Assembly: GCA_963726695.1 (NCBI GenBank)
Contig: CAVSDE010000007.1
Location: forward strand, 32,466 to 96,465
Length of the DNA stretch: 64,000 nucleotides
From: an uncultured Acidimicrobiales bacterium
GTDB taxonomy: Bacteria; Actinomycetota; Acidimicrobiia; Acidimicrobiales; DATKAS01
Direction: 5' to 3'
Shown: in pieces, positions 670-36,072 of the stretch
Layout of the letters: every line of letters begins with the position of its first letter
How positions within the stretch are numbered: position 1 is the first letter of the stretch
The notes under the pieces: generated by a model
The model's input: the letters and a program-made list of their open reading frames with translations, nothing else
The model's database searches: none
What the model was told of the DNA's origin: nothing
Program-made: the position numbers and the translations under genes

Positions 670-1441
670 GCTTGGCCTCGACCGACGACCGCTGTGCGTC
701 CGGGATCGGCTGGGCGAGGATGTCGCGCAGCAGCGTCGCCGCGCCGGCGGCATCGTCGAGCTGAGTCAGCTTCACGTTCGCGAGAAACCACTTCGCGTCG
801 AGGTCGGTCGGGTCGATCTTCAAGCTCTGGTCGAGCAGGTCGGCGCCGCCATGGGGATCGCCGAGCGCGGCCGTCGTCCAGCCCAGGTACTTCAGCGCCT
901 TCTCCCGGTCGGCGTCGGAGGGGTTGTTGTCGAGGGCGAGCTGCGCGTGCTCCTTCGCCTTCTCGAGGTTGCCCTCCTTGAGGTACCGCTCGATCAGTGC
1001 GAGGCGCATCGGGGTGATCGACGGGTTCTGCTTGATGACCGCTTCCATCTCGTCGTCGGTCACGGTCGACAGGTCACGACCGCCGCCGGCGAGGGTCGAG
1101 ACCGTGGACTGCACCGAACCGCTGGCGCCGCGGTCGGAATGGCCGACGACGACGGCCACGATCGCGACGCATGCGACAACGACGATCCCGGCCAACGTCA
1201 GCGTCCTCGTGGTGCGGTCGACCCGGCCAACGCTGAGGACGTCATGCTCAGCCGGCACTGGCTCGGGCTCGAGCGCGGCCACGATCTCGGCTTCGTAGAT
1301 CTTGGTCAGGTGCTCCGCGGTCTCGGCGTCGATCTCACCTGCTTGGCGCTGCCGCTCGACTTCGACGAGGTCTCGCAGCGCCCGGGCTTTCCGCGCATCG
1401 ACGACGCCACGCTCAGCGGACATTGGGCGCTCAGAGCTCAC
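644..1441 (-). CDS. single-pass membrane-anchored TPR-repeat protein, possibly a cytochrome c maturation chaperone (CcmI/CycH-like)
   Basis: 265-aa ORF with one TM helix (LTLAGIVVVACVAIVAVVVG). The C-terminal part is TPR-like (LIERYLKEGNLEKAKEHAQLALDNNPSDADREKALKYLGW...). Its GTG start overlaps the TGA stop of the upstream cytochrome gene (GTGA at 1438-1441). An alternative ATG start lies at 1423. Confidence 0.6.
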   Translation of the reverse strand: MSSERPMSAERGVVDARKARALRDLVEVERQRQAGEIDAETAEHLTKIYEAEIVAALEPEPVPAEHDVLSVGRVDRTTRTLTLAGIVVVACVAIVAVVVGHSDRGASGSVQSTVSTLAGGGRDLSTVTDDEMEAVIKQNPSITPMRLALIERYLKEGNLEKAKEHAQLALDNNPSDADREKALKYLGWTTAALGDPHGGADLLDQSLKIDPTDLDAKWFLANVKLTQLDDAAGAATLLRDILAQPIPDAQRSSVEAKLKEAEQGH

Positions 1442-4347
1442 CGGTCAGAGCGTCGCACAGGCACCGGCTCGGATCGCAGTCGACCCCTGCGACGCAACCA
1501 CAGCCAACCCGCCCCTGCCGCGGCGGCAAACGCGACGCCCAGCGATCCGCCGACCGGCAACCCGGAAGCCGCGCCCGCCTTGTCGGGCGGCAGGCTGCCG
1601 ACGAAGTCGGACGAGCCGAGTGCGCCCTGCTCACCGCCGGGGTCGTTGCCGATGCAGCTGAAGATCGTTGCGCCCTCTTCGTTCTGAGGGCCCTTGCACG
1701 CGAGCACCGTGCCGCCGTCGGTCTGCGCGCTGACGACGTCGGTGATCACCATGTTCTTCAGCAGCGCTTCGGGATCGGTGATCTTGGCCTGTTCGGGGAT
1801 GCGCTCGAGCTTCGCGTTCGCCTCGGCCAGCCCGGTCACGAAGTACGGCGGCAGGCTCCGGAAACGCATCTTCGCGGTGACGACGATCTTGGTGCCCGGT
1901 GGCAGCGACGCAGTGTCGAACACGTAGTCGTAGCTGTCGGACGAGCGATCCTGCAGCGTGCCGTTCGCGTCGGCGACCTCAGCGGATCGGGTCGCAGCGT
2001 ACGCATCACCTGCTGGGTCGCCACCCGGGTGCGCAGCTTGACGATGTCGGGCAGGAACGACTGGTACGGGACCTCGGTCAACGTGCCCGTGTTCTTTGGG
2101 TCGCCGTCGGTGAGGATCTTCTGGAAGTTCGTCAACCACGGGTCGCAGTCGTCGCCGGGAACGCGGCGCTGAACTTGATGTTGATGTCGCCGAGCTTGCC
2201 GGGATCGATCGGCTTCCCGTCCGAGTCGGATCGGCGAGGAGGGCACGCTGGACGCTCCGGGGTCGCATTGCCGCAGCTCGTCCTGGCGGAGACTCGACGA
2301 CGCCCGACGCACACGGCGAGTCGATGCTCGGCCGACGGTCGTTCACGAGGCAGACCTCTTGGCCGTCGGCGGTCTTGGCCGAGACCTCGAGCCAGAACTG
2401 GCGGGCGAAGGCGAACCCGGTCGGGAAGTGTGGCCGAGCAGGTTGTTGCTGCACGACGACGTGCCGTGCACGTCGTGCCGGCGACCGTGTCGCGCCCTTG
2501 TCGACGACCTCGAGGGTGACCGCCGACTGCACCAGCGCCTTGCGCTCGGCGAGCACCCGCTGCAGCGTGTCGGACGGCAGCCCGCGACCGGTGTACGCGC
2601 GACGGGTCGAGGTCGTAGTCGACGCCGACGAACGAGTGCGATCGGTGTGGGCGGTCGGGGTTGGGCAGGATCCCGGGCGCGTGGTCGACGACCGCTGCTG
2701 GTCGCCGTCGCCCTCGGTCGGCATGTGGCACTCGGTGCAGCCGAGCGGGGCGGTCGAGCTGCTGGCGGGTCGTCGTCGGCGATCCGCTCGTCGAAGACGG
2801 CGACGTAGTCCTGCCACTCGTCGAACGTGGTCTGCAGCACGAGGTCGTCGGAGCTGCCGTCGCCGTCGGGTCGTCGAGCTCGTTGGCGTCGAGCTGGAAG
2901 TTGCCGTTGCCGTCGTCGGCTGCGTGAGCCCGGTCGTTGTCGTCGGCGACGGTCGACAGCGCCGTCGCCGTCGATGTCGATCTTCACGTTGTGGCACGCG
3001 CCGCAGAGCTGCGAGCCGTGGCGATCGTCGTTCCACACAGCCGTCGTCGCCGTTGCCGATGCCGTGCACGCGCACCGGGGCAGCGGGTTGGGGTCGGCGA
3101 ACAGCGGGCCGTACTGGACGCCGTAGTTCGTCATCGGGCCTGCGTGGCCGATCGAGCAGCGAGCCGGCGCCCGCCAGCTCGGCGGGCGGCCGCCTGCTGG
3201 GTGTGGCAGACCATGCAGCTGACGCCGTCGGAGTTGCACCGCGTCGCCGCCGCCGCTCACGGCGACACCGCCGTCGGCCGCGCTGGCCGAGTTCTCGGCG
3301 TCGAGCGGCAGGAGGGCGTCGATGTTCTCGACGAACCGGCGCGCCGACCGGGGCGTGGCAGTTGATGCAGGTCTTTGCGGCCGAGTCGAAGAGCGCCTGC
3401 TGCGTGTCGCCGAGCTGGTCGGCCAGCTTCTCGTTCTCGGCCAGCGTGACCGGCAGCTGCGCCTCCATGATCGTGCCTGTCTGGGCGTGGGCCATCGACG
3501 ACAGCTTCCACTCGTGGACGATGTCGTCGTGGCAGTCGGCGCAGGTGTTTGACGCGACGAAGCGGTCTTGTCGCTGCCGAACGCGGCCTGGGTGCCGCCG
3601 AGCACGTCCCAGACGTGCAATGCCAGCACCCGACGAACAGGATCGTGATGATCGGGTGCAGGGCGCGCCACGACTGGAACTGCAGCACCTTCGAGCTCTG
3701 ACCGCCCTCGCGAGGGAAGTTCTTCTCGACCTCGTCGGACATCTTCCGGACCTCGCGCCAGATGATCTGCTCGCCCGAGTCGAGCTTGGCCATCTCGGCC
3801 TCGATCTCGGAGAGCGGCAACGATTTTCGATGAAGTCGTTGACCAGCTCGCGGAAGTGGCGCGGCTGACCCTGCGCCATCTTGGTGATGGCGACGTTGAC
3901 GTTGAGCGCCTCTTTCTGGAGGCCGATCATGTGGTGGCGCGCCACCCCGCCGATCGACACGAGCACGCCGAGCAGGATGAGGATCTCGCCCGAAGTGAGA
4001 TGGGTCTGGAACGGCACGATGGTGGCGTGCACGATCGCCGCGACCAACGCGAGGATCGGCAGGTACATGTGCGAGCGGATCCAGGTCATGGTTCCGCCCG
4101 GCATGATCTTCTTGCCGAACTTGGTGCGCTTCCGGAACGGATACAGCGCGCCCGGGCTGAGGAACAGCAGCGCGGTCAGGATGCCGAACCCGATGACGAC
4201 CGCGAGCATCACGCCGCCGGTCGGGGTCACGCTCCCCTGGATGTAGAAGAGCCCCCCGAACCCGATCGCGAGGATGAGGACCGAACCGAGGACGGCCGCG
4301 ATGTTCCACTTCCGCGACGTGATCTGGAACTTCGGCGGACCAGGCAC
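1438..4347 (-). pseudogene. fusion of a 4-TM His-containing (b-type/DUF4405-like) membrane domain with a multiheme c-type cytochrome; a dozen or more frameshifts
   Basis: N-terminal TM helices carry conserved His (RSHMYLPILALVAAIVHATIV, ARHHMIG). Heme-binding CXXCH motifs are spread over three frames: CADCH, CINCH, CMVCH, CGACH, CTECH. A GH.FPTG-type motif (HFPTGFAFARQFWLEV) is typical of large multiheme cytochromes. Family-like peptide runs alternate between the frames of ORFs 1438..4347, 3257..4363, 2343..3671, 2132..2731 and 1836..2312. Confidence 0.6.
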
Positions 4348-4456
4348 CCGGCGAGCTCCCCAAGGGTCGAGGCTGGTGCGTTGTCTAGCACACGTCGCCG
4401 GAGGGTCGTGCTACGTTCCGACGACAGATGCGGACTCGGCACCCAGGGGAAGCCGC

Positions 4457-5671
4457 GTGACACTGGCGATCGATCTCGACGTCTTCAACGTGGGCTCCAC
4501 ACCGCTGCAGATGCTGCTCGTCGTGGTCATCCTGACCGTGCTGGTCGGACTCGTGATCATGCTCGTCACGCAGATCCTTTCGCCGTACTTGAATCGGCGT
4601 TGGCCGGCGACCGCTCCGCTCAGCCCGACCGAGCTGCTCTGGGGTGAAGCCGGCGGTCACGTCAAGCGCACGTTCCGCGGCCTCGACCTCGAGGAGCAGA
4701 AGGACATCGCGAGCCAGCTCGCCGAGCGCAAGGTTGCCGCCGGCACGGCGATCACCAGCCAAGGCGACCCGGCAACCGCGTTCTACCTGCTCAAGAGCGG
4801 CACCGCCGAAGCAGTCCAGGTCGACTCAGGGGGCGGCGAGCGCAAGCTGCGCGACTACAACGAGGGCGACTCGTTCGGCGAGGTGGCCATCCTCGAACGC
4901 AGTCCGCGCACCGCGACGGTCCGCGCGCTGACCGACTGCGTGGTCCTCGAGCTGCCAGCTGAGGACTTCGTCGCGGCGGCCGCCCAGACCGCGGCCGAGG
5001 GCAACGACTTCACCGCGGTCGCCCGTTCGTTCCTCGCCACTGACCGGGCCCGAGCGCGCATCGCCGCCGGCGAGCCGGCGCTGAACCCCGTGCAGCAGGT
5101 GCAACGAGGGGCGCCGAGCGGGATGCCCTCGCCCGGTCCGGTGCCGGGAAACGCCACCGTCTCGTTCGAGGTCGCGGCTGCCGCGGCCGCCGTCGCGGCC
5201 ACGTCCTCGCGCTCCGAGGCGCCTCCTGCCGCCCCGCCCGTCGTTCCCCCGCCCCCTGCGGCAGCGCCGCCGGCCGCAGCGCCGCGGCCGCAGCGCCCGT
5301 TGGCTGCGCCTCCCGGTGCCGCTCCGCCTCCCGGTGCCGCTCCGCCGGGTGCCCCGGTGATGCCCCGGCCGGCGATCGCGCCCGGCACGAGCGAACGTCC
5401 GGCCCGACGCCCTGCGCCCGCGAACCCCGTGCAGCGCGCGATCCAAGACCGCCAGGTCGCGGCTCCGGGATGGCAGGCGACGCACCGAGTGGGCGCGTCC
5501 GGCGCGCCGGCCCGAGCGTCGGCCGACCCGAACGCCGCGCCGAGCGCGACGTTGCAGCCGGGCACCCTGGTCCGGCTCATCGAACGCTCGGGCGACTGGG
5601 CCCGCGTCGATGCCGACAACGGTTGGAGCGGCTGGGTCGACTCGAGGCACCTCGACCCCGCCGGGCCGTAG
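4457..5671 (+). CDS. membrane-anchored cyclic-nucleotide-binding protein with Pro/Ala-rich linker and C-terminal SH3-like domain
   Basis: In-frame GTG at 4457 precedes a TM helix (LQMLLVVVILTVLVGLVIMLV). The CAP-effector-domain signature is present (FYLLKSGTAEA...GDSFGEVAILERSPRTATVRA). The C-terminus looks like bacterial SH3 (GTLVRLIERSGDWARVDADNGWSGWVDSRHL). Confidence 0.75.
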   Translation: MTLAIDLDVFNVGSTPLQMLLVVVILTVLVGLVIMLVTQILSPYLNRRWPATAPLSPTELLWGEAGGHVKRTFRGLDLEEQKDIASQLAERKVAAGTAITSQGDPATAFYLLKSGTAEAVQVDSGGGERKLRDYNEGDSFGEVAILERSPRTATVRALTDCVVLELPAEDFVAAAAQTAAEGNDFTAVARSFLATDRARARIAAGEPALNPVQQVQRGAPSGMPSPGPVPGNATVSFEVAAAAAAVAATSSRSEAPPAAPPVVPPPPAAAPPAAAPRPQRPLAAPPGAAPPPGAAPPGAPVMPRPAIAPGTSERPARRPAPANPVQRAIQDRQVAAPGWQATHRVGASGAPARASADPNAAPSATLQPGTLVRLIERSGDWARVDADNGWSGWVDSRHLDPAGP

Positions 5672-6575
5672 TTGCGCGTCCGGATCTGGGGGACGCGCGG
5701 GTCGCTTCCGGTGTCGGGTCCCGGTGTGCTCCGCTACGGGGGCAACACACCGTGCCTGTCGATCGAGTGTGGCGACGAACCGCTGCTCGTGCTCGATGCC
5801 GGCACCGGCATCTTCAACCTCGCGAAGTCGCTCGGCCGACCACCTGACTTCCGCTGCACGATCGCGCTCACGCACCTGCACTGGGACCACATGATGGGTC
5901 TCCCGTTCTTCTTCCCCGCCGACCAACCCGACGCCGAGACGCTGGTGCTCGGTCCGGGCGACCGCACGAAGAGCGACGAGGGAGCAGGCGTGCGCGCGAA
6001 CCTCGACTCCGTGCTGCGGCCCCCCGGGTTCCCCATCACCCTCGACGGGCTCGAAGGGCGGTGGCAGTACGAGACGCTCGGTGACGAGACGGTGCGACTC
6101 GGTCGGGTCACCCTGACGACTCGGCACGTGCGCCACCGCGGCCCGACGTTGGGCGTGCGCGTCGAAGCCGATGGTGCGGCGCTCGCCTACATCCCCGACC
6201 ACGGGCCGGGAGCCGAGGGCCGCGGGCCCGAGCAGGACGAGCTCGTGCCCGACGGCGTGCGAGACCTCGTCGACGGTGTCGACCTCCTCGTGCACGACAG
6301 CGCATCAGACGCCGAGCCAGTACGAGCGCTTCCGCCACTTCGGTCACTGCACCCCGGCGTACGCTGCCCGCGTCGCCAAGGCGGGGAAGGTCGGACGGCT
6401 GTTGCTCTTCCACCACGACCCTGGCCGCGACGACGACGGAGTCGACACGATGCTCGACGATGCCCGCCGCGCGGCTGCCGAGCTCGGATATGCCGGGCCG
6501 ATCGATGCCGCGGCCGAGGGCGACACGTACGAGCTGTCAAGGGCCGAACCCCCGACCGAGGAGGTACTGCGGTGA
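5672..6575 (+). CDS. MBL-fold metallo-hydrolase (candidate cyclic-nucleotide phosphodiesterase); one frameshift near 6300
   Basis: N-terminus MRVRIWGTRGSLPVSG...YGGNTPCLSIE and the HxHxDH motif THLHWDH. The C-terminal part (YERFRHFGHCTPAYAARVAKAGKVGRLLLFHHDP) continues in the frame of ORF 6171..6575. The gene starts directly after the stop of the cNMP-binding gene. Confidence 0.7.
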
Positions 6576-13846: not shown

Positions 13847-15022
13847 TCAGCCGGCGCCTTCGGCCTCGAACACGAAGCTGCGACTGCCGACCGCGACCCA
13901 CCCGCCAGGCTTCACGGATGCGACCTGATTGGGCACGAGGCGCACCCAGTCCGCGTTCGTGTCGCTCCAAACGTAGGTGCCGTTGGTGGATCCTCGATCG
14001 ACGATCTGCAGCTCAGACCCGAACAGCCGCAGCTCGGCGTGCACCCGCGAGATGCTCCGCTCGGCGTCGTCGACGACGAGAGGACCGGCGCGGCCCACGA
14101 CCACCGCTGCGTCGTTGTCGGGCTCTCGCCCGATGATGTAGTCCTTGTCGAGCGCGTAGCTCGTGCCGTCCTCGAAGACGATGACGCCGATCGACTTTCC
14201 GCCGGGTGCACTGCCGCTGGCCTCAGGAGCTTCCGCGACCGCCGCAACCGCAGCCGGCGCAGCGAAGGCCTCGGCCGGCGCCGGTGGCGGCTCGGGCGCA
14301 GCGATCGCCTCGACGACGGGGATCGCCGCGACTGCCGCGACAGCGGCGACCGGCAGCGGCTCGGGCTCGGGCTCCGCGGGTGCCAGCGGCTCGGCCAGGT
14401 CGGTGAGCGCCGATGCTCCGCTCGACACACCTGCTGCGACGCCTGCCGCTGCTCCGGCGGCCACGGCTGCGGCCGGTGCCGACTCCTTCGGTTCTGCTGC
14501 CTCACCCGCGGTGCCGGGCGTCGCGACCACGTGCCCGCCGCTCACGAGCGTGATGCCGACACCGGGCACGACGCCACCCTGCAGCTCGTACATCGCGGTG
14601 CGCTTCGGCGGCTCCATCCCTCCCGCAGACACCGAGCAGGAGCCGAGCGTGCCCTCGAGGATGCGATCGACCCAGGTCGCCGCATCACGACCCGAGAGCT
14701 TGACCTCACCTCTCGAGCTCGAGGCCGCGAGATCGATGTTGCCCGCGAGGATCACCGACAGACCGTCCTCGGTCTGGGCGAGCACGCAGATCGCCAACCC
14801 GGTGTCGGGGTCGGCCGCCGAGAGAAGACCGGCCATCCGCCGCGCAAGGGCGCGCCCGGGGGCGTCAGGGGTCGCCTCGCCCACCTCGCGACACAGCGCG
14901 ATGAGCTCACCGATGCGCCCCTCGTTGCCCGTGGCTGGCACGGCGACCAGCACGATGCCCGGCAAGCGGGCGATCACGCCGTCCCCGGTAGCCAGCAGAG
15001 CTCGCTGCTCGTCAAGTTTCAT
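13847..15022 (-). CDS. FHA-domain protein (C-terminal FHA, Ala/Pro-rich linker, N-terminal domain of unknown function)
   Basis: FHA signature: YIIGREPDND...ISRVHAELRLFGSELQIVDRGSTNGTYV. The gene lies 30 nt downstream of the kinase gene on the same strand. Confidence 0.8.
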   Translation of the reverse strand: MKLDEQRALLATGDGVIARLPGIVLVAVPATGNEGRIGELIALCREVGEATPDAPGRALARRMAGLLSAADPDTGLAICVLAQTEDGLSVILAGNIDLAASSSRGEVKLSGRDAATWVDRILEGTLGSCSVSAGGMEPPKRTAMYELQGGVVPGVGITLVSGGHVVATPGTAGEAAEPKESAPAAAVAAGAAAGVAAGVSSGASALTDLAEPLAPAEPEPEPLPVAAVAAVAAIPVVEAIAAPEPPPAPAEAFAAPAAVAAVAEAPEASGSAPGGKSIGVIVFEDGTSYALDKDYIIGREPDNDAAVVVGRAGPLVVDDAERSISRVHAELRLFGSELQIVDRGSTNGTYVWSDTNADWVRLVPNQVASVKPGGWVAVGSRSFVFEAEGAG

Positions 15023-15052: not shown

Positions 15053-17651
15053 TCAGAACAGGTCTGGGTTGGCGGTGAAGCTCTTCTCGATCTGCTCGAG
15101 TGCCGCTTGGTCCTCAGGGGTGGGGACTTGGACCTCGATGATCGCGGTGTAGTTCTCCTCGGGCGGCTTGGCGATGATCACCGTATAGAAGGAGTCGGTA
15201 CCCGCGCACTGGCTGAAGGTCTGGAACCGGCCCTTGAAGACGCCGTCGTCGTAATCGGCGATCGCCTCGGCGGTGCAACCGTCCCGCGCGAAGACAGGAA
15301 ACAGCGAGTCGATGTCGGGGACCGGAGTCTTCGTGGCAACGAACAGCATGCCTGCCGTCGTGAACCCGGTCGTGAAGTCGGTGCCGTCGGCGGACGCCGC
15401 GACAGCGGGGCCGACCTGCTGACCGCCGGGCACGGGGATCACCGTCCAGCTGGCGGGGACGTCGACGCTCGAGCGCGCCGGTCTCATCGGAGATCGTCTG
15501 AAAGTCGGTCGAGACCGCGGTGGTGTCGGTTGTGCTGTCCCCGCCGCCTTCGGGGAGGGGCGCGCCGTTCAGCTCGCCCGTCAGCGTCTCGCCCGCGCGC
15601 ACGACGGTCATGGGGATGACCGCGTCGGAGCCATCGGAGCGCAGCACGTCGCAGTAGTCCTGCATCGTGCCGTCGGTCGCGACGTCGGTGCCATCGAGCT
15701 GCGTGATCACGTCGCCGGGCAGGAGGTTCGCTCGCTCGGCCGGGGTCGCGGTCTCGACGGACGCGACCCACACGCCGGCCGGATTTTCATCGGACTCGGG
15801 AACGGCAAGGCCGTTGATCCCGACCGAGTCGACGTCGCCTGACTGCAGCTCGTCGGTGATGCCCTCTGCCGATGTCGACGCCACCGCGAAGCGGTCGTCG
15901 CTCGACGCGCTTGCCGCGTAGTTCACCCCGACGACGTGGCCGCTGTCGTCGAGCAGCGGACCGCCCGACTCACCCGGCTCGGTCTCGGCATCGTGGGTGA
16001 TGACATCGTCGGTCGCCGACCATGTCGTCGCGAGCGAGTCGACGCTCGTGACCGTGCCATCGGTGAGGGCGAACGAAGTGTCTCCCGCGATGAAACCTGC
16101 GGCGTGCACGGCGTCGCCGGGAGCCGCACCGACGGACGACCATTCGAAGAACGGGTAGCCGTCGCCGGCGATGTCGATCACCGCGAGGTCGTCGCACTCG
16201 GAGCGCCCGACGACGCGAGCGTTCTTCGGCTTGTCGTCGCCATTCACGAACACTTGGAGCGTCGCCGCGCCGGCGACGACATGGTTGTTGGTGACCGCGA
16301 GCCCGCTCGGGTCGATGATGAAGCCGGTGCCCTCGCCCGCCTGATCGAGCTGCTTGCCGACGTCGGGCAGCACGAAGTCGCCCTCGGACACGATGCGCAC
16401 CGTGCCCTGTGCCGCGTCGGCAAGGGAGGCGATGGCTGTCCCGGTCGGGATGCTGTCGGTGGGAGGTGGGCTGGCGCCCGAGCCTCCGCCCTTCGACGCG
16501 AGCGCGATGCCGCCGCCGATGAGGGCGACGATCGCGACCGCACCGATCGCGATCAGCGGCCCTTTGCTCTTGCCCTTCGGCTGCCCGGCGCCGACAGGCA
16601 CTCCCGGCATCGTCTCGCGGCTCGGCGATGTCGGCGTCGTCGGGGGGGTCACGAGCGCCGAGGCCGGGGGCGGCGGCATGCTCGCGAGGCCGTCCGACGC
16701 TGCCAGCGTGCTCGCGCTGGTCGTCGCGGCTCGGCCCGTCATCGTCGCGTCGGGCGCCGGCAGCGTCACCGAGACGAGCGTCATGTCGGTGACCGGCACA
16801 CCGAGCGCGCGCTGCGCCTGCTGCAGCGCACGGCCGAAGGCGGCGGCGCGGGGACGCACCGTGGGATCCTTCGCGAGCCCTTGCTCGATGATCGTGGCCA
16901 CAGCGTCGGGAACCCCGCGGGTGCGGAGGTCGGGCACGGGCCGCGTCACGATCCGCGAGATCATCGTGACGATCGACGTGTCCTCGCTGTCGTCGCTGAA
17001 CGGACCGCCGCCCGCGATCAGCGTGTAGAACGTCGACGCGAGGCTGTAGACGTCGGACGCCTCGGTCGGGCGCTTGCCCTCGACGATCTCGGGCGGCGCG
17101 TGCGCCATCGTCGCGGTGATCACTCCGCTTCGGGTCTGGTTGGCACCTTCGATGCGGGCGATGCCGAAGTCGCCGAGCTTGGGTTCGCCGTACTGGGAGA
17201 CCAGGATGTTCTCGGGCTTGATGTCGCGGTGCAGGACGCCGGCTTCGTGCGCAGCGTCGAGCGCTCCCGCGACCTTGATCGTCGCCGCCGTCGCGTCGTT
17301 CCAGGGCATCGGGCCTTGCTTCGAGAGCCGATCGCCGAGCGAGCCCCGCGTCATGAACTCCATGACGATGTAGGGCTGCTGGTCGTCGGTGAAGCCCGAG
17401 CCGTACACCGTGACGATGTTCGGATGGCTCGACAGCGCGCCCATCGCCATGCGCTCACGCTCGAAGCGATCACGCGCGGACTCGTCAGCGGCGGCGATCG
17501 GGAGGATCTTCAGGGCAACCGTGCGCTCGAAGCCCACCTGATGCGCCTTGTAGACGACACCGAACCCGCCACGGCCGATCTCGACCGGTTCCTCGAATCC
17601 GGAGATGGAGATCGGGCGAGGCCCGCCCTGCCCCGCTCCCGGATCCGTCAT
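15053..17651 (-). CDS. Hanks-type Ser/Thr protein kinase - TM - trypsin-like (HtrA/S1C) protease - PDZ - extra C-terminal domain; one frameshift near 15469
   Basis: Kinase motifs: GRGGFGVVYKA, VALK, HRDIKPENIL, DFGIA. TM helix: LIAIGAVAIVALIGGGIAL. Protease triad contexts: TNNHVV, DDLAVIDI, GESGGPLLD. PDZ-like segment: LLPGDVITQLDGTDV. The C-terminal 140 aa continue in ORF 15053..15487. Confidence 0.8.
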
Positions 17652-27504: not shown

Positions 27505-29284
27505 TCAGACCGACCGGGGGTCCCCCACCAGCTGCTCTATCCGGCTGTGGAGCTCTTCGAGCGACGCGAGCTCGGCAGCGAGGGCAGCCATGTCGGCAGG
27601 CGAGCCCTGCGAGAGACGGGCGTGCTCAGCGGCGTGGACGGCGTCAGCGATCGAGCGCGAGATCTCTGACGCGCTGCGTCGCGAACGACGTGCGCAGCCC
27701 CCGGTGGATGCGGCGCAGCGCGTCCTGCACATCCTTGGCCACGCGGAACGTGACCTCCTCGAGGTAGCGAGCGACCGACTGGCGGGCCTGTTCGCGCCGA
27801 CTCGCCAGCTGCCGTTGCTTCTCCTCTCGAAGCACTCGACGTCCCATGAAGATGCCGAGCACGAGCGACAGCGGGTTGATGATGCTCATGCCGATGAGGC
27901 CACCGACCATGCTGAACGCCTCGATGCCCGTCCACGAGCCCTCGAGCAAGAGCACGCCGCGCTGACGCGCACCCAGCCGCCGCGAGCCGACCTCCGAGCC
28001 CACGTGCACGGCATCGATCGCCCGAGCGGTGTCGGCCTCGAGCGTCGCGCCGATGTCGGCCTCGGCCGCCTCGAACCGCTCGGACACCCGCGCCGCGAGC
28101 GACTCGGCTCCGGTGGACAGCGACAGATAGGTCGCGGCGACGTCAGCCATCACCTGTTGCTCGAGCCATCCCGCGAACTCGTCCCATCCATCCGCCGGGT
28201 CGGTGGTCGCGATCCGCTCCTCGGCTTCACGAGTCACGTTGCGCAGACGGCTCGCCAAGTCGTAGTCGATCTCGGTGCGGAGGTCGCCCATGCCGTCGTC
28301 GAGCGCGACGAGCCACCCCGCCGCGGGATCGTTGAGCACGTCTGCCTGCGCCTTGGCTCGTGCAAGCTCATCCAACAGCGCGCCCGCGCGATTCGGATCG
28401 GCGCCCTCACGCTCGGCCCGCACCACCTGTTCGACCTGGCGGAGGGCGATCATGGCGTCGACCATCGCGAGGTTCGCCCGTCGATCGACGGCTCCGGCCC
28501 ACACCCCGTCCAGCGCGCCGCGGAGCGCGTCCAAGCCAGAGCGCTCGGGCGGCAGCACGATCGACACGGGAAGGACCTCGACCGGGAGCTCGGCCCGGGC
28601 GAGGTGCCCCCGGTCGAGCTCGACGATCCGACGCCAGGCGGGCTGGAAGTCGATCTTGCTGACGACCTCGACGACCACTGGGCACGTGGAGCACGCGGCC
28701 CGAAGGAAGTCGAGCTCGGGTGCGCTGAGCTCCTGGGCCGCGTCCGACACGAAGAGCACCGCATCCGCAGCCGGGAGCGCGGCGACGGTCGCGGCGTTGT
28801 GCACCGAGGCGAGCCCACCGACACCGGGCGTGTCGACCAGCTGCAACCCGCCCGAGAGGAATGGCGCGGGCACACCGAGCTCGACGAGCTGCAGGGCGCG
28901 AGCGTTGTCGTGGTTCCCCGACTCCGAGCAGTACTCGGCGCGCGCGTCGTAGGGCACCGACTCCACGACGGGCTCGCCACCGACATCGTCCGCGGCTCCC
29001 ACCGTGCGTGCCTCGGGGCTCTCGGCCCAGCGGACGAGGGTCGGGACGGCCGTCGCGAGGTCATCGTCGACTGGGCAGACATACGCGTCGAGCAGCGCGT
29101 TGACGAGCGCGCTCTTGCCCATCTTGAACTCGCCCGCCACGATCACCCGCACCGCGGGATCGCTCATCGCGCTGCGTCGCTCCGTGAGGCGAGCCGCGAG
29201 GTCGGCGCGCTGGCGTCGCTGCACGACCGTGACGACATCGTCGAGCAGCCCTTGCGACTGCTCGATGCGGTCGCGCTCGTTCAC
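27505..29284 (-). CDS. bacterial dynamin-like GTPase with hydrophobic membrane-insertion hairpin (DynB/IniA-like); frameshift near 27670
   Basis: G1: VAGEFKMGKSALVNALL. G3: LVDTPGVGG. G4: VSKID. A long helical stalk follows. The hydrophobic paddle is GIEAFSMVGGLIGMSIINPLSLVLGIFMG. GTG 29284 overlaps the upstream stop (GTGA). The last 55 aa are in ORF 27505..27732. Confidence 0.75.
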
Positions 29285-31771
29285 GCGCTCTCGTCCATCA
29301 ACAGCAACACGCCTTCGCAGGTGCGCACCAGCACCCGCGCGGTGTCGGCGACCTTCGGCTGCGTCAACGGGTTCTCAGCCCGCCGCTGCCAGCGCGCCGC
29401 GGTGTCGAGCAAGGCCACTCGCACCTGCGCCGGTGAGGAGTCGGGAGGCAGACCGAGCCGGGCGGCAGGGCGCGAGCCTTCGGCGCCGAGGAGCCGTTCG
29501 ACCGCGTCACGCTCGTCGTCGCGCACGGGGATCGCTCCCGACCTCACCAGATCGAGCACGCGCAGCTCGACGAGATCGTGGGCGCCGGCCGTGATGCGCT
29601 CGAGCTCGGCCGCCAACGCGTCGGCGCCGTCTCGATGATCCATCCGCACCACGTCGTCCATGACCGCGAGCGCTGCCCTCGCCTTGAGCACGTCGCGCCG
29701 CGCGGCGAATTGCTGCATGAGAAGTCGGCGGAGGTCACCCAAGCCACTCGAGCCCGACGAGCTCGTCGGCGAGACGAGTCGACGTCGGCGCGACTCCCGC
29801 GCGGACCATCTCGACCGAGCGGCGGATGCCGAAGAGGCCGAAGCGCTCCAACAGCTCTTGGCGCTCGACGGAGGTGAGGCCGCTCACGCTCGCCGCCGGC
29901 GTCTCGGGATCGACGAAGTCGTCGACCGACATCAGGACTGCCTCGAGGTCGGCAGGAGCAAGCCGCGCGAGCAGCTCGAACGCGTGGAACTCGTCCTCCC
30001 TCAGCGTCATCCCCGCTTGCGCGATCAGGCCCGCGACGGGCACGACGGCCTGACAGATGCGCCGCAGCCGAGGATCTCGTGAGTATCGGGTCGCGACTCT
30101 CGCCGCGGACTCCATCGCGTCGGGACGCCCGACTCCGACCTCGTCGGCGCGGGAGAGCACGGCGATGACGCTCGTCGGGGCCGAGTCGTCGCGATCTGTG
30201 AACGTGTCCAGAAACCTCAGGTCGGAGGGATGGAGATGGCGAGTCAGATAGACGATCGCATCGGCCGGGCTGTCACTGACCTCACCCGAGAAGGCCGCCT
30301 CGGTGCTGGCCGAGAGCTCGGCGGAGATCGACGCCAGACCGGGAGTGTCGATGAGGCTCATCGCGCGCAGCGCCGACGACGGCCATTCGATGACGATGCG
30401 CTCGACTGCCTCAGCGCTGAGCTCGCCCAACGAGATCGAGATCGCTCCGCCCTCGCGGGTGAACACCGCGGTGCGCGAGCTCACCGTGCGCGGATGCAAC
30501 GTCGCCTTGTAGGACGGGCCGTCGACGTACCAAGTGACGACGCGGGTGCACTCCCCCGCATCGGTCGGCGCGAGCTCCTCGCCCACGAGCGCGTTGAGCA
30601 ACGTCGACTTGCCCGCCTTCACCCGACCGACGATCGCGACGCGCAGCGGCTCTCCGAGTCGGGCGCGGACGCGGCGCAACCGCTCGCCGGACGCGGGCGA
30701 GCCACCCGGTGTGGACTCGTAGAACCCGATGGCCGACTCGAGCAGGACGGTGACCTGGTCGAGCAGGCTCGGCGGCGCCGGTGGACCACCCGGTCTCGGC
30801 GCCCGAAGGCGCGGCGGGGGCGGAGGCATCGATCGCGGAGACGGCGGCGCGAGACCGGTCGCTCCGCTGGCTCGCGGGGCATCGGTCTCGGCCGCCCGCG
30901 TCACGAGCATCTTGCTCATGGCCTGGCCGCACGCCTGTTGGGTCTCCTGCAAACGACGGCCGAATGCCGCGACGGACTCGGGGCGATCGTCGGGGTCCTT
31001 GTGCAGCCCGAGCTCGAGCACGTCGGCGACCGCAGGTGGCACGCCGCGCTCCCGTAGGTCCGGCGGCGAATCGAGCGCGATCCGTCGGATCAACGGAGCG
31101 ATCGATTCCTCGTCCCCGAGCCAAAACGCGGGCGCACCCGCGAGCAGCTCGTAGAGCGTCGACGCGAGGGCGTACAGGTCGCTCGCCGGTCCCGGCGACT
31201 GACCGCCCAGCAGCTCAGGTGCGGCGTGCACGAGCGTCGCCGTCACCTTCCCGGCGGCTGTCTCGTACGCGCCCTTGACGCGGGCGATCCCGAAGTCGCC
31301 GAGATGGGGCTCGCCCCACGCCGACAGCAGGATGTTCTCCGGCTTCACATCTCGGTGCAGCACACCCTCGCGATGCGAGCTCTCGAGCGCGCCAGCAAGC
31401 TTCACGCCGAAGTCGAGGACGTCGACCCACGGCACGCGCTGCTCCGCGAGCAGATCGTGAAGGGAGCCGCCGGGCAGGTACTCCATGATGATGTAGGGCT
31501 GTCCGGCCGCAGTGCCGGAGTCGAACACCGTGACGATGTGCGGGTGGCCCGAGAGGCTCCCCATCGCGGCGCACTCTCGCTCGAAGCGGATGGTGGCGGC
31601 CTCGTCGAGCTCCCCCGTCAGCACCTTGACCGCGACTTCCCGGTGGAAACGGGTCTGGCGGGCGCGGTACACGACGCCGTAGCCCCCTCGGCCCACGAGC
31701 ACGGCATCGGTGATCCCGTCGATGCCGAGGTCGACCGATTCGACACTCCCGGGGGCTCTCGCGTCGGACAC
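29281..31771 (-). CDS. Hanks-type Ser/Thr kinase fused to a dynamin-like GTPase; frameshift near 29760
   Basis: Kinase motifs: GRGGYGVVYRA, VAVKV, HRDVKPENILL, DFGIA, VHAAPE. A Pro-rich linker (PPPPPRLRAPRPGGPPAPP) follows. GTPase motifs: G1 IVGRVKAGKSTLLNALVG, G3 LIDTPGLAS, G4 LSRAD. Kinase and G domain lie in one uninterrupted frame (ORF 29735..32752). The C-terminal stalk continues in ORF 29281..29742. I place the start at GTG 31771. Confidence 0.7.
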
Positions 31772-31837
31772 TGGGCGTGAGCCTACGGTCGAGCCGCGCT
31801 TGCCTAGGCTGCGCCGAGCCGTGAGGGGGTTGCTGGC

Positions 31838-34465
31838 GTGACGTACGAGCTCGGGATCGATCTCGGCACGACCTGGACTGCCGCGGCCGTGTGGCGCAAC
31901 GAGCGAGCGACGATCGTCAACCTGGGCACCCGCCAGGCCGCGGTGCCGTCGATCGTCTACCTCGGTCCCGATGGCGGCGTGCTCGTCGGCGAGGCGGCCG
32001 ACCGTCGTGTCCTCACCGAGCCCGAGCGCGTCGCGCGCCAGTTCAAGCGCCGCATCGGCGACCCCGCGCCGATCCTGGTCGGCGGCGCTCCCCACTCGGC
32101 CGAGCTGCTCACGAGCAAGCTGCTCCGCTGGGTCGTCGACGCCGTCGCGAGTCGTGAGGGCGAGATGCCCACCACGATCACCATCACCCATCCGGCGAAC
32201 TGGGGCGCCTACAAGAAGGATCTCCTCGAGCAGGCCGTGCACCTCGCGGGTCTGTCGGGGCCGGGGAACCCGACGATCCGCTTGCTGTCCGAGCCGGAGG
32301 CCGCGGCGATCCACTACGCGGGCACTGAGAGAGTCGAGCCCGGTCAAGCCGTGGCCGTCTACGACCTCGGTGGCGGCACGTTCGACTCCGCCGTGCTGCG
32401 CGCGACCGGCGACAGCTTCGCGATCCTCGGAGCTCCGGAGGGCATCGAGCGTCTCGGAGGCATCGACTTCGACGCCGCGGTGATGGGCCACGTCATGCGA
32501 CGCTCGGAGGACTCGACGATCTCGATCCCGACGATCCCGCAGTAGCGACGGCGGTCGCCCATCTGCGCGACCAGTGCACTGCCGCGAAGGAGGCGCTGTC
32601 GGTCGACACGCAGACGATCGTGCCGGTGATGCTGCCGGGCCGGCACACCGAGGTGCGGCTGACGCGTGCCGAGCTCGAGGCGATGCTGCGACCCGCGCTC
32701 GAGGAGACTGTCGCCGCGACGACCCGCCGCGTTGCGCACCGCGGGACTGCAAGCCTCCGACCTCAGAGCAGTGGTGCTCGTCGGAGGGTCGAGCCGCATC
32801 CCGCTCGTCGCGCAGCTCGTGACGTCAGCCCTCGGGCGTCCGGTCGCGATCGACACCGATCCGAAGCACGCGATCGCACTCGGCGCCGCGCGCCACGCAC
32901 ACCTGAGCACTGCCGGACCGGGCGCCATCACCTCACCGAGCCGTCAGACGGCGGACGGCCTGGCCCGCGGACAACCGCTCGCGGCTGCCGCGGCGATGAC
33001 TCCGCTCGCGTCCCCTCCGCCGTCGCCCGGTCGGATGACGCCGCCGCCCGCGCCACCGCCGACCGCGTCCATCGTGCCGCCGCGGACCAGCGGGCCGATC
33101 CCGACCGCGCCACCGCCCTTCTCGACCCCGCCTCCGTCATCGACCCCGCCCCCATCGATGACGCCGCCTCCGTACGTCCCGCCTCCCAGCGAGCCGACGA
33201 CCCCGGGTGGTCGGCGTCGTCAGGGCCATCCAAGGGCAAGCGCACCGGCCTCCTCATCGGCGCGGGCGTCGTGGTGGTGGCCCTCCTCGCGGGCGGCGTC
33301 GCCGTGCTCGCCGGTGGCGGTGGCGGCGGAGATGACTCAGGCACGCAGGCCACGGGCACCACGGTCGCCACCGACGACACCACCTCCGACGGCGGGGCCG
33401 ACACGACTGCGGTCACCGACGGCGGCGACATCTCCGACCCGCTCGAGGCGGGTTTGCTGTCTTCGCTGGACTTCGAGAGCGTCACCGGAGCGGTGACGCT
33501 CCAGGGAGCGGTGACGTTCCCGAGCGACGTGCTGTGCGACGCCGACGGCGTCATCGGCACCTCGAGCTTCGTGGACTACCGCTCGCGTCTCTTCGCCGAC
33601 AACCCGGACTTCAGCGGGAAGAAGGCCGCCACGGGCGCGATCGAGTTCCCCGACAGCGACGCGGCCGACGCTTTCCTCGAGCAGCTCAACAACTTCGGTG
33701 CGAGCCACGTCGTCACCGACGAGTGCCCCCTCACGCAGGTCGACTTCTTCGACGGCACTGTCGCGTTCAAGGAGACGCCCGCGGGCGGGGGCGATCAGGG
33801 AGCTATCGGCTTCGCGAAGGTCGACCCGGATGTGGTGGTGTTCGTGGGGGTCGGGGATCCGACTGGGATGGATCCCTCCGAAGTCCAGTTCCTCGTGCAG
33901 GAGCAGAAGCAGAAGATGGGGGCACTGCTCAACGGAGACTCAGGCGGCGCTGACACCTCGACACTGGCGACACTGCAGGGCGCGCTGCTCACCCCCGACG
34001 ACGTGGGCACCGGCTTCGACCAGACGATCACCTCGGTCGATCCCGAAGTCGACTACCTGTGCTTCAGCACACCGTCGGCCGACCGCTCTGCCGCCACCGA
34101 GGTCGACGAGCAGCTGTTCGGCCCGGACGGGACGAGCGAGGTCGCGATCGTCACCCTGTCGTTCCCCGACGCGGCGACCGCCGCCACCTATCTCGCGGAC
34201 ACCGAGGCGTTCATCGACGAGAACATCGACGGTGGCTGCGCCCTGACGGTCGAGCCCACCGACGCCCTCGAAGCAGTCCACCAGCCTCGACGACGCCTTC
34301 ACCTTGACGTTCGATGGTGGCAACGGACGCAGCCAAGCGACCTGGGCGAAGCTCGGGAACGTGGTCGTCGTCGTGATCGGCAACCCGCTGACGACCGCCA
34401 ACGTCGACGACCTCGTGGCCGCTCAGATGAACCGCATCAACGACGCCGGGCTCATCACGGACTGA
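31838..34465 (+). CDS. Hsp70/actin-fold ATPase-like protein, Pro-rich linker, TM helix, two extracytoplasmic Cys-containing sensor-like domains; four frameshifts (about 32502, 32735, 33215, 34276)
   Basis: Hsp70 NBD motifs: LGIDLGTTWTAAAV, ITHPANW, LLSEPEAAAIHY, VYDLGGGTFD, VVLVGGSSRIPLV. The linker is TPPPSMTPPPYVPPP. TM helix: LLIGAGVVVVALLAGGVAVLAG. The extracytoplasmic part contains paired Cys residues (VLCDADG...TDECPL and DYLCFSTP...DGGCAL). Confidence 0.7.
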
Positions 34466-34519: not shown

Positions 34520-35110
34520 GTGGCGCAGCAGCGCGACTTCGGCGCGGTCCTCGAAGGAGCCAAGAAGGGCGAGCACTGGGCAGTCGCGCTGCTGTTCGAG
34601 GATGTCCAGCCGCGCTTGCTCCGCTACCTGCGCAGCCGAGACCACGCCGCCGCTGACGACATCGCTGGCGAGGTGTGGGAGGCGATCGCCAGGGGGATCC
34701 GAAGCTTCGAAGGCGACGACTCCGACTTCCGCGGCTGGGCGTTCACCATCGCCCGTCGTCGGCTCATCGACCACCACCGAAAGCGTGAGCGGCGAAAGAC
34801 CGATCCCGCGGACGAGGCGACGTTCACGGCACTCCCAGGCGCCGAGACGACCGATCGTGCAGCGATCGACCACTTGTCCGCTCAGGAGGCGATCGCACTC
34901 ATCACGTCCTGCCTCACCGAGGAGCAGGCCGAGGTGGTGCTGCTTCGCGTCGTCGGCGGCATGGACACCCATCTCGTCGCCGAGGCGCTGCAGCGATCAG
35001 AGTCGTGGGTGCGGGTGACCCAACACCGGGCGCTCAAGCGTCTCGCCGAGCACGTCGATCGCGACCTCGCTCCACTCGGTGTAACACCGATGCCTCGCCA
35101 CACGATGTAG
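34520..35110 (+). CDS. ECF (group 4) sigma-70 family sigma factor
   Basis: Region 2: DIAGEVWEAIARGIRSFEGDDSDFRGWAFTIARRRLIDHHRK. Region 4: LTEEQAEVVLLRVVGGMDTHLVAEALQRSESWVRVTQHRALKRL. Confidence 0.8.
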   Translation: MAQQRDFGAVLEGAKKGEHWAVALLFEDVQPRLLRYLRSRDHAAADDIAGEVWEAIARGIRSFEGDDSDFRGWAFTIARRRLIDHHRKRERRKTDPADEATFTALPGAETTDRAAIDHLSAQEAIALITSCLTEEQAEVVLLRVVGGMDTHLVAEALQRSESWVRVTQHRALKRLAEHVDRDLAPLGVTPMPRHTM

Positions 35111-36072
35111 TGGGTGTGTCAGACCACACACCCGACGAGATCGCGACATCGGCGGCCCTCTTGAAGAGAGCGAGCAGCCCGGCCACGGCTGACGAGCTCG
35201 AAGCCGCCGACGCCACGATCTCCCGGTTCATCGAAGTGGTCCTCGAACCGTCTGAGACAGCACCGACGCGACGGCGCCGTGCGCTTCCGGTGCCGACGAG
35301 GGTGGCCGCCGTGGTCGTCGCGGCGACGCTGTGGTCCACGGGCATCGCTGCGGCAGCGACCGGGCATCTCCCCGACCAGGTGCAGCACGCGGTGTCGAAC
35401 ACCGCGTCGCACGTCGGGCTCTCGTTGCCCGATCCGTCGGATGAGAGGGCCGTAGAGACAAGCGACGAGCAGAGCCGAGGCGATCGCAGCATCAACACCA
35501 ACGAGTCGGACTCGTCCACATCATCGATCGTCACGAGCACGACATCGCCGACCTCGACATCGCCGACCTCGACATCGCCGACCACGACAGCGACGCCGAC
35601 GGACGGATCGGTCGCGGCCGCGTCGGCCTCGCTCTCCGGCGGTGCTTCGCGGGGCGTCGGTCCCGATGTGAACGGGCCTGCGCACGACGGCCTGTGCAAC
35701 GCCTACCTGCGCGGGCTCGCCACCGGGCACCCGAAGAACCCAGACGCGCCGCCGTGGCGCGACCTGCTCTCAGGCGCGAAGCAGGCGGGCAAGAGCGTCG
35801 AGGCGTTCTGCGGCTCGACCACTGCGACCACGACGGCGACCACAGTCGCATCGGCAGCGACCACGGCCTCGAAGTCCTCGACGAGCTCGAGCACGGCCAC
35901 AACGGACGAGACCAGCACCACGATCCAGGCGGAAGGGAACCCCCATGGCGGCGGCAACGGAAGCAGCGACGCTGGCAACGGTGACGGAAGCAGCCAAGGC
36001 AACAGAAACGGCAACAGCCAAGGCAACAGCCAAGGCAACAGAGACGGCAACGGCAACAGCCAGGGCGGTTAG
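35110..36072 (+). CDS. single-pass membrane protein, candidate anti-sigma factor, with Ser/Thr-rich and Gly/Asn/Ser/Gln-rich low-complexity regions
   Basis: GTG 35110 overlaps the sigma factor TAG by 1 nt. TM helix: VAAVVVAATLWSTGIAAAA. The extracytoplasmic part has a CNAYLRGL...VEAFCG motif and the tail GNRNGNSQGNSQGNRDGNGNSQGG. Confidence 0.5.
   Translation: MGVSDHTPDEIATSAALLKRASSPATADELEAADATISRFIEVVLEPSETAPTRRRRALPVPTRVAAVVVAATLWSTGIAAAATGHLPDQVQHAVSNTASHVGLSLPDPSDERAVETSDEQSRGDRSINTNESDSSTSSIVTSTTSPTSTSPTSTSPTTTATPTDGSVAAASASLSGGASRGVGPDVNGPAHDGLCNAYLRGLATGHPKNPDAPPWRDLLSGAKQAGKSVEAFCGSTTATTTATTVASAATTASKSSTSSSTATTDETSTTIQAEGNPHGGGNGSSDAGNGDGSSQGNRNGNSQGNSQGNRDGNGNSQGG
35541..35583 (+). 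repeat. 15-bp in-frame tandem repeat x3 (TSPTS units)
   Basis: gacatcgccgacctc is repeated three times and the last copy is slightly divergent. A second short 12-bp repeat (ggcaacagccaa) occurs around 36010-36060. Confidence 0.8.

Follow-up and report, generated by a model that had tools for sequence, protein, structure and literature searches.

A Ser/Thr kinase fused to an IniC-type dynamin-like GTPase in Acidimicrobiales points to possible phospho-control of the IniA/IniC pair

The closest described relatives of the genes discussed here are the mycobacterial dynamin-like GTPases IniA and IniC, which have been implicated in cell-wall-drug tolerance and in the release of membrane vesicles. 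IniA binds acidic lipids via a lipid-interacting loop and cuts membrane tubes upon GTP hydrolysis (PMC6715688). The authors of that study propose that it repairs damaged membranes, and they suggest that IniC, which they could not purify, regulates IniA or co-assembles with it (PMC6715688). Vesicle release in Mycobacterium tuberculosis requires both IniA and IniC (bioRxiv 10.1101/2020.01.14.906362), and bacterial dynamin pairs are generally hetero-oligomers (PMC6104087). It has also been published that transcription of iniBAC is raised in PknF/Rv1747 mutants. Here we describe a locus in which the IniC-type protein itself carries a Ser/Thr kinase. It lies in a 64,000-nucleotide stretch of DNA (the window; GC content about 70% throughout) from an uncultured Acidimicrobiales bacterium, which unlike the mycobacteria is not a mycolic-acid organism. 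No bacterial dynamin with its own kinase turned up in the literature searched, and the fusion offers a direct handle on the regulation of IniA and IniC.

The gene in question, gene A, occupies positions 29281 to 31771 on the minus strand and encodes a Ser/Thr kinase, a Pro-rich linker and an IniC-type dynamin-like GTPase, in that order; the assignment draws on open reading frames (ORFs), Pfam, intact homologues, tblastn and orthology to IniC. It starts with GTG at 31771 and stops with TGA at 29281-29283. As assembled it is divided into 678 and 153 amino acids (aa) in two frames, the first ORF ending at 29735-29737 and the continuation in another frame running from 29742 to 29281; without a 1-nt insertion the product would have about 830 aa. 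Two Pfam families are recognised inside the same gene A ORF, Pkinase at 144 bits (E=6.9e-42; cut-off 31.7 bits) and Dynamin_N at 51 bits (E=2e-13; cut-off 27 bits). The Hanks-type kinase domain (aa 25-265; 30977-31699, minus strand) is identified by Pfam, PDB matches, Foldseek and motifs. It contains GRGGYG (aa 27-32), VAVK (46-49), HRDVKPEN (139-146), DFG (159-161) and APE (184-186), and with the helix-C Glu also present the Hanks motif set is complete. Its top PDB sequence matches are M. tuberculosis PknB, PknE and PknA, and the modelled domain has a template modelling score of 0.83 to PknA/PknB in Foldseek. Judged by these motifs the kinase is catalytically complete and predicted to be competent. 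A full motif set and activation-loop Thr residues are common to it and the PknB family; unlike members of that family, gene A lacks a transmembrane segment as well as PASTA or any other sensor domains, and a dynamin-like GTPase takes the C-terminal "sensor" position.

The linker (about aa 290-334; 30770-30904, minus strand) is Pro-rich and predicted to be disordered, from its sequence and from the AlphaFold2 (AF2) model of P0002, one of three relatives of gene A from other assemblies (P0002-P0004, 83-86% identical). The model of the full P0002 fusion (86% identity to gene A) has two confident domains with a disordered linker between them, the predicted local distance difference test score (pLDDT) falling to 30-42 at residues 294-330, in keeping with a flexible tether. 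The G domain of gene A (30143-30640, minus strand; Pfam Dynamin_N at aa 378-515) has the motifs GRVKAGKST (G1, aa 382-390), DTPG (G3, 475-478) and SRAD (G4, 540-543) and is followed by a helical neck and trunk down to 29284. A sequence-only reading of the window had placed a complete Hanks kinase, a Pro-rich linker and a dynamin-type G domain in one gene, and the motifs lie where it put them to within about 15 bases.

With the whole fusion as query, the PDB sequence search and Foldseek returned kinases, hence the GTPase part was searched alone; its top PDB sequence match is then the bacterial dynamin-like protein BDLP. Residues 335-821 of P0002 align end to end, at 49% identity (E=3e-134), with the 490-aa protein encoded after iniA at a Pseudonocardia locus (L004). 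In tblastn the L004 protein matches the window at 50% and 49% identity across the frame break, and the C-terminal 495 aa of gene A likewise align end to end with this IniC-position protein of Pseudonocardia iniBAC at 49% identity. These end-to-end alignments identify the GTPase half of gene A as an orthologue of IniC. Unfused IniC orthologues have 485-500 aa, and the window protein departs from a stand-alone IniC of about 490 aa by some 330 extra N-terminal residues, the kinase and linker. Since the orthology extends over all 490 aa, this looks like a clean N-terminal addition of about 330 aa. IniC is not known to have a solved structure. For the fold, a 57%-identical unfused orthologue was used in place of the GTPase part of the fusion. 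Its AF2 model has a pLDDT of 88.1, and its best 50 Foldseek PDB matches are all mitofusin-1, BDLP, SynDLP, Cj-DLP1/2, IniA, Mx or dynamin. The dynamin-family G domain of the sequence-only reading is thus borne out. An Era/EngA-type GTPase is ruled out by the Dynamin_N score above cut-off, the BDLP match and the all-dynamin Foldseek list. We saw no hydrophobic segment or membrane loop in the sequence of the IniC-type part of gene A.

Gene B follows directly (27505-29284, minus strand; assigned from phmmer to PDB 6J72 and from relatives named IniA). The GTGA at 29281-29284, present as earlier noticed, joins the GTG start of gene B (29284) to the TGA of gene A. In L006, an Acidimicrobiales locus from a short-read metagenome-assembled genome with 85% identity, an 824-aa fused ORF and a 588-aa second ORF are both clean and again overlap by 4 nt. 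From this arrangement we take the two genes to be translationally coupled, and adjacent, coupled genes are found in iniA/iniC as well. Gene B ends with TGA at 27505-27507; as assembled it is a 546-aa ORF followed by a frame change, and without a 1-nt insertion near 27678 it would have about 590 aa, the intact relatives having 584-588. It has the motifs GEFKMGKSA, DTPGVGG and SKID (Dynamin_N E=3.7e-16, Pfam). In phmmer, residues 13-534 align with residues 7-542 of M. smegmatis IniA (MsIniA; 6J72) at E=1.8e-75 and 258 bits, while the next structure, Nostoc BDLP, reaches only 2e-5. Identity to Pseudonocardia proteins named "isoniazid-induced dynamin-like GTPase IniA" is about 43%. Gene B thus aligns end to end with mycobacterial IniA (6J72/6J73), G motifs and the loop with its two basic residues included, and is a full-length IniA orthologue.

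The part of IniA that touches the membrane can be followed in this alignment. In MsIniA the lipid-interacting loop (residues 480-492, with R488/K489) is needed for membrane binding and fission (PMC6715688). The trunk-tip hydrophobic segment and loop of gene B, placed by alignment to MsIniA, lie at aa 453-487 (27824-27928, minus strand; GIEAFSMVGGLIGMSIINPLSLVLGIFMGRRVLRE). Here NPLSLVLGIFMGRRVLRE of gene B is aligned with NPLSLGAGFVLGRKAYKE of MsIniA; the gene B loop is LVLGIFMGRRVLR, and both basic positions equivalent to R488/K489 are kept, as RR. The lipid-interacting loop of IniA is therefore conserved in gene B, and membrane binding is predicted. The sequence-only reading had seen in the two genes a soluble protein paired with one that inserts a hydrophobic hairpin. 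Membrane binding by gene B agrees with this, but the hairpin was overstated, as the same region in IniA is a peripheral lipid-interacting loop (PMC6715688). Its analogy with IniA/IniC, one of three that it drew, has been sharpened to orthology of the pair. We are confident of these identities of the locus components.

Differences from iniBAC, an operon that responds to cell-wall synthesis inhibitors and is controlled by IniR, are also apparent. We mapped five protein families onto the best-scoring 80 species loci from 185,579 species genomes, a sample that was drawn with a profile of the fusion alignment and consists mostly of unfused IniC loci, so that it is no census of fusions. Among the 78 loci in which both genes were found, iniA precedes iniC in 76; in the window clade (the window's own product, P0002-P0004 and L006) the order is reversed. 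The window further differs from iniBAC in the kinase and linker, and in having no match to IniB: tblastn with Pseudonocardia IniB finds nothing in window positions 18001-42000, while the same query detects IniB at many loci of the Pseudonocardia type.

Dynamin-like genes that come in pairs can protect against phage (bioRxiv 10.1101/2022.05.11.491447), and like this locus the Eleos system (LeoA/LeoBC) has two adjacent dynamin-like genes of which one is membrane-associated. The locus might therefore be an anti-phage system of that kind, in which assembly of the dynamins upon infection triggers the kinase as an effector by abortive-infection logic, as the sequence-only reading had also entertained. 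PADLOC does return weak LeoA/LeoBC matches of gene B (E=1.5e-13 and 3e-12), and among the profiles that the kinase matches are PD-T4-6, Mad6 and further ones for defence kinases. However, the Leo matches (48.8 and 44.5 bits) cover the G domain only, compared with 258 bits over the full length to IniA, and among the PADLOC matches listed there is none to Leo for gene A; the kinase matches are of the generic Hanks-domain sort. The neighbours are metabolic (glyoxalase, AraC-type regulator, NUDIX, FAD oxidase, arginase, amidohydrolase) and are syntenic in L001, a related locus from an ENA assembly. No sign of a defence island or mobile element is seen in the window neighbourhood. Among the best 80 loci, iniA-iniC pairs are spread over Acidimicrobiia, Pseudonocardiales, Micromonosporales and other groups of Actinomycetota, mostly beside an Hsp70-like gene of the kind described below, like a widely inherited module and not like an island gene. 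Membership in Eleos was rejected, as PADLOC and NCBIfam gave no family-level match other than generic kinase and GTPase profiles, and we give the anti-phage explanation very little credence.

Another actinobacterial pair deserves mention. In Streptomyces, DynA and DynB stabilise FtsZ rings; they are a soluble and a membrane-associated dynamin (PMC6104087; bioRxiv 10.1101/2025.06.23.661029). If the present locus were a division accessory of this sort, its kinase could provide a link to division control by PknA/PknB, and the fused kinase is indeed structurally closest to these two. Yet division genes are absent from the locus flanks, and the orthology points to IniA/IniC, proteins connected with envelope stress and vesicle formation and not with septation. 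No Streptomyces locus is among the best 80 IniC-type loci. Such a role in division strikes us as highly improbable. The DynA of Bacillus subtilis, which has two dynamin units per chain, has the logic of a heterotypic pair in common with the window, where the units are separate genes. One database relative, P0342 (1302 aa), does have two dynamin units in one chain. Membership of the window proteins in the Bacillus DynA family was rejected, as they score 16.5 and 24.6 bits with NCBIfam NF052648, whose cut-off is 1600.

Is the fusion real? The protein database has the window's own product as the 678-aa protein called on the source contig (P0001). In four independent assemblies, however, those of P0002-P0004 and of L006, the fusion is uninterrupted (818-828 aa), and none has a stop between kinase and G domain, which the sequence-only reading had named as an observation that would speak against it. 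The kinase-IniC fusion is genuine. A chance ORF in GC-rich DNA is ruled out by the intact homologues of 83-86% identity and 818-828 aa, and a chimera of kinase and GTPase made in assembly by the occurrence of the fusion in all four assemblies.

The breaks themselves can be located closely. At frame break 1 (29741-29750, minus strand; seen by DNA alignment, tblastn and homologue proteins) the window has one extra base, CTCGAG in place of CT-GAG in two relatives. Intact relatives switch frame on the window at 29741/29742 in tblastn, and read ...ADELVALSGLxxLRRLL... across the site. In gene B the switch, again by tblastn with intact relatives, is at 27677/27675. Both shifts had been suspected from the sequence and are real, at about 29745 (not 29760) and about 27678 (not 27670). 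A gene for an Hsp70-like protein that diverges from gene A, discussed below, has at least four frame changes within 2.6 kb in a three-frame reading. In all, single-base breaks within genes that are otherwise well conserved are seen at 27660-27700, 29741-29750, 32490-32730, about 33210, about 34285 and the 3' end of a further kinase gene at 15114-17651.

If these breaks were genuine, the window copy would be a decaying pseudogene cluster and the module would not function in this organism. Within 7 kb each dynamin gene is broken once and the Hsp70-like gene no fewer than four times, which could be taken that way, as could the fact that the truncated 678-aa product is the one called on the source contig. 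But the sequence after frame break 1 is conserved as well as that before it (89% and 86% identity to P0002, respectively). In-frame stops have not built up, and the breaks are single-base insertions. In L001 the same genes are broken at different places, while the short-read L006 is intact, and the other kinase gene of the window likewise ends in frame-shifted text. Conservation past the breaks, the differing breaks of L001 and the intact L006 together indicate an indel-prone source assembly. The breaks are most likely assembly errors, and we regard a pseudogene cluster as improbable. Since they are so frequent, ORF calls anywhere in the window need caution.

How unusual is the fusion? The best 120 matches of a word search contain 33 kinase-dynamin fusions, each standing for one cluster at 90% identity (alignment A1); the number of fusion clusters at this level is put at about 35. 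Databases that name them at all use "protein kinase", and every source organism stated belongs to Acidimicrobiales. We also searched 1.84 billion cluster representatives (clusters at 50% identity) exhaustively with HMMER; the best 150 matches, which were examined, yield only about 6-9 fusion clusters at 50% identity, most others being unfused IniC-type clusters. Among the best 80 species loci there are three fusions. The kinase-IniC fusion is rare. The sequence-only reading had not recognised the architecture as described; we too found no published description of a kinase- or pseudokinase-dynamin fusion in the literature searched, but the architecture is already in public databases, unremarked and recurrent. 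What is new is hence neither the parts nor the pair, which are known, but the attachment of the kinase and the wider pattern of kinase, Hsp70 and FHA fusions.

The 33 fusions also tell something about the added domain that had earlier been overlooked. As many as 28 are predicted pseudokinases. In place of the Gly loop they have RRGDHTELY, in place of HRD..N they have HRK..D or HQN/HQS, and in place of DFG they have DFQ, DFH or DFE, while the VAVK Lys, the helix-C Glu, the D-F pair and APE are still conserved. In a consistent pattern the catalytic Asp is changed to Lys while the Mg-binding Asn is changed to Asp. The catalytic motifs are kept only in P0002-P0004 and in a pair with a divergent dynamin, P0030/P0035. 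G1, G3 and G4 of the GTPase are conserved in all 31 IniC-type fusions and occur in variant forms in P0030/P0035. Since 28 of 33 lack catalytic residues, whatever function is conserved in the added domain cannot be phosphotransfer. The fold has been kept even where catalysis is lost, which suggests that its core role is probably regulatory docking or scaffolding, with phosphotransfer kept only in the window clade. That clade is a natural place to test catalysis, because its active-site residues are kept. In a neighbour-joining tree of the kinase part the pseudokinases are monophyletic (95/100 bootstrap) and P0030/P0035 stand as a separate fusion, so that there were at least two fusion events. 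Two database proteins have other rare layouts around IniC-type dynamins: P0364 (1068 aa) has two kinase domains together with a dynamin, and P0285 (980 aa) an unknown N-terminal region of 440 aa followed by a dynamin.

A further component of the locus, also overlooked before, is the Hsp70-like gene (31838-34465, plus strand). Pfam HSP70 is found on both of its pieces, it has to be read in three frames, and it is 40% identical to the copy that diverges from Pseudonocardia iniBAC. Its start lies 66 bp upstream of gene A on the opposite strand. The layout comprises a nucleotide-binding domain only (about 375 aa), a Pro-rich linker, one transmembrane helix (33247-33318) and an extracytoplasmic domain of about 380 aa, for which there is no Pfam match. 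A gene of this kind is likewise near the dynamin pair in L001, and it is found in the flanks of 53 of the best 80 loci, or 40 of the 48 (83%) with at least 5 kb on both sides. It is a conserved neighbour of iniA-iniC across Actinomycetota, although we found no Hsp70-like partner of this pair described in the literature searched. A comparable arrangement is known in the cyanobacterial "chaperone group" of BDLPs (Jilly et al. 2018, PMC5827413), where a dynamin-like gene is likewise beside a gene for a DnaK-domain protein; those belong to another phylum and another subfamily of dynamin-like proteins, whereas here the Hsp70-like protein has only the nucleotide-binding domain with a transmembrane helix and an extracytoplasmic domain, or else is fused to IniA.

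Such fusions to IniA (982-989 aa) occur directly upstream of pseudokinase-IniC in three loci (L003, 5060-8008; L031, 6057-9026; L034, 6030-8996). In another, L002, the Hsp70-like gene (4254-6011) ends in an FHA domain, which binds phospho-Thr, and stands beside pseudokinase-IniC; just past it (1186-4126) are genes for a separate kinase of 555 aa and for a cell-wall hydrolase of the NlpC/P60 type, which hints at a link to peptidoglycan remodelling. Natural fusions are classic pointers to physical and functional partners. By this reasoning a Ser/Thr kinase or pseudokinase module would be a partner of IniC-type dynamins, an Hsp70-like ATPase would be one of IniA-type dynamins, and phospho-Thr readers with FHA domains can belong to the set. 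The window too encodes signalling proteins elsewhere. At 15114-17651 (minus strand) there is a membrane Ser/Thr kinase with an extracytoplasmic trypsin-like protease and PDZ domains, whose kinase domain shares 53% identity with that of the fusion, and adjoining it at 13847-15022 (minus strand) is the gene for a 391-aa FHA-domain protein. These may possibly be upstream or partner components.

Several of these observations could be accommodated by a different explanation, in which the kinase fold serves mainly as a non-catalytic docking site or scaffold. A separate membrane kinase would phosphorylate it, FHA or other partners would bind, and the catalytic motifs of the window clade would be an ancestral remnant that matters little. 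The 28 degenerate fusions that keep Lys, Glu, D-F and APE are consistent with this, as is L002 with its pseudokinase-IniC, Hsp70-like-FHA protein and separate kinase; in the window, too, a membrane kinase (53% identity) and an FHA protein are encoded at a distance of 12-17 kb. There is also a described system with a similar look. Gee and colleagues reportedly found in 2012 that the pseudokinase of mycobacterial MviN (MurJ) is phosphorylated by PknB and recruits the FHA protein FhaA. That system likewise has a kinase fold on a protein of envelope biogenesis or maintenance, and L002 has a degenerate kinase beside an FHA partner; here, however, the partner is a dynamin and not a flippase, and the kinase of the window clade is not degenerate. 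P0001-P0004 and L006 keep all catalytic residues at 83-89% mutual identity, a sign that catalysis has been under purifying selection in the clade, and the Hsp70-like partner of the window has no FHA domain. We think it unlikely that docking is the main role in the window itself.

What we favour, as a little better than an even chance, is that the locus is the Acidimicrobiales version of the iniA/iniC module, whose two GTPases would bind, deform and sever the cytoplasmic membrane upon envelope damage, and that kinase-IniC couples membrane remodelling to Ser/Thr signalling. The following scheme can be suggested. The soluble, IniC-type partner would have gained an N-terminal, catalytically competent PknB-like Ser/Thr kinase on a flexible Pro-rich tether. 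Coupling of the genes would provide kinase-IniC and IniA in equal amounts, and the two proteins may form a hetero-oligomer on the membrane via the lipid-interacting loop of IniA. Assembly, or dimerisation of the G domains, would raise the local concentration of the tethered kinase domains. These could phosphorylate one another in trans at the activation loop (ETAAGKVTAT), in the manner of PknB-type kinases upon dimerisation. The kinase might next phosphorylate nearby partners such as IniA, the linker, the Hsp70-like protein or FHA-domain proteins. In this way phosphorylation would tie membrane remodelling to Ser/Thr signalling, in either direction. The pseudokinase majority and the FHA partner in L002 suggest that the conserved job may be phospho-dependent docking. 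If correct, the fusion points to phospho-control of a membrane-repair machine, and it offers testable hypotheses on what activates the dynamins of bacteria where membranes are damaged. We have much less confidence in the direction and targets of this control than in the identities of the proteins.

A number of points weigh against this scheme. The catalytic residues are absent in most fusions, as we have seen. An interface between kinase and GTPase is not evident in the AF2 run of the fusion (predicted template modelling score 0.57). In the neighbour-joining tree of kinases the pseudokinase clade and the window-clade kinases are joined at 52/100 support only, and the tree of the GTPase part groups the window clade with unfused Acidimicrobiales IniC and not with the pseudokinase clade. 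No IniB-like gene was found in positions 18001-42000. Both dynamin genes and the Hsp70-like gene carry breaks, and if these are real the window copy is inactive. Finally, for the substrates, the direction of control and the oligomeric state of the fusion family we have drawn on sequence throughout.

A broader and more speculative possibility follows from the Hsp70-like gene. Actinomycetota might have an envelope-damage machine made of three enzymes: a membrane-anchored ATPase of the Hsp70/actin fold whose extracytoplasmic domain senses the wall, IniA/IniC, and a kinase or pseudokinase module on IniC that sends or receives the signal by phosphorylation. We would call this doubtful at present. 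If true, the Hsp70-IniA, Hsp70-FHA, kinase-IniC and pseudokinase-IniC fusions would be snapshots of one complex, and the Hsp70-like protein would be a missing component of IniA/IniC in Pseudonocardia-type iniBAC loci as well.

The 66-bp region between the divergent genes (31772-31837, no strand assigned) was examined by DNA alignment of the window, L001 and L006. Two blocks are conserved, CAGCCTAGGCAA and GTAGGCTCAC, with TAGGCT in each, and one block is palindromic (AGCCTAGGC). TAGGCT fits the actinobacterial -10-like TANNNT, and one copy lies about 8 nt before the GTG at 31771, which suggests a leaderless kinase-iniC mRNA. The blocks are thus candidate -10 elements, or an operator. A sigma-70 promoter scan with a consensus of the E. 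coli type gave no match, as is expected for an actinobacterium of 70% GC. The only terminator-like match falls within gene A and is no better than chance. Directly 3' of the Hsp70-like gene is a gene for an extracytoplasmic function (ECF) sigma factor (34520-35110, plus strand), at whose equivalent place L001 has a sigma-70 region-4 fragment. After it comes an ORF (35005-36072, plus strand) with a hydrophobic stretch and Ser/Thr-rich low-complexity repeats of the GNSQGN type, possibly an anti-sigma factor.

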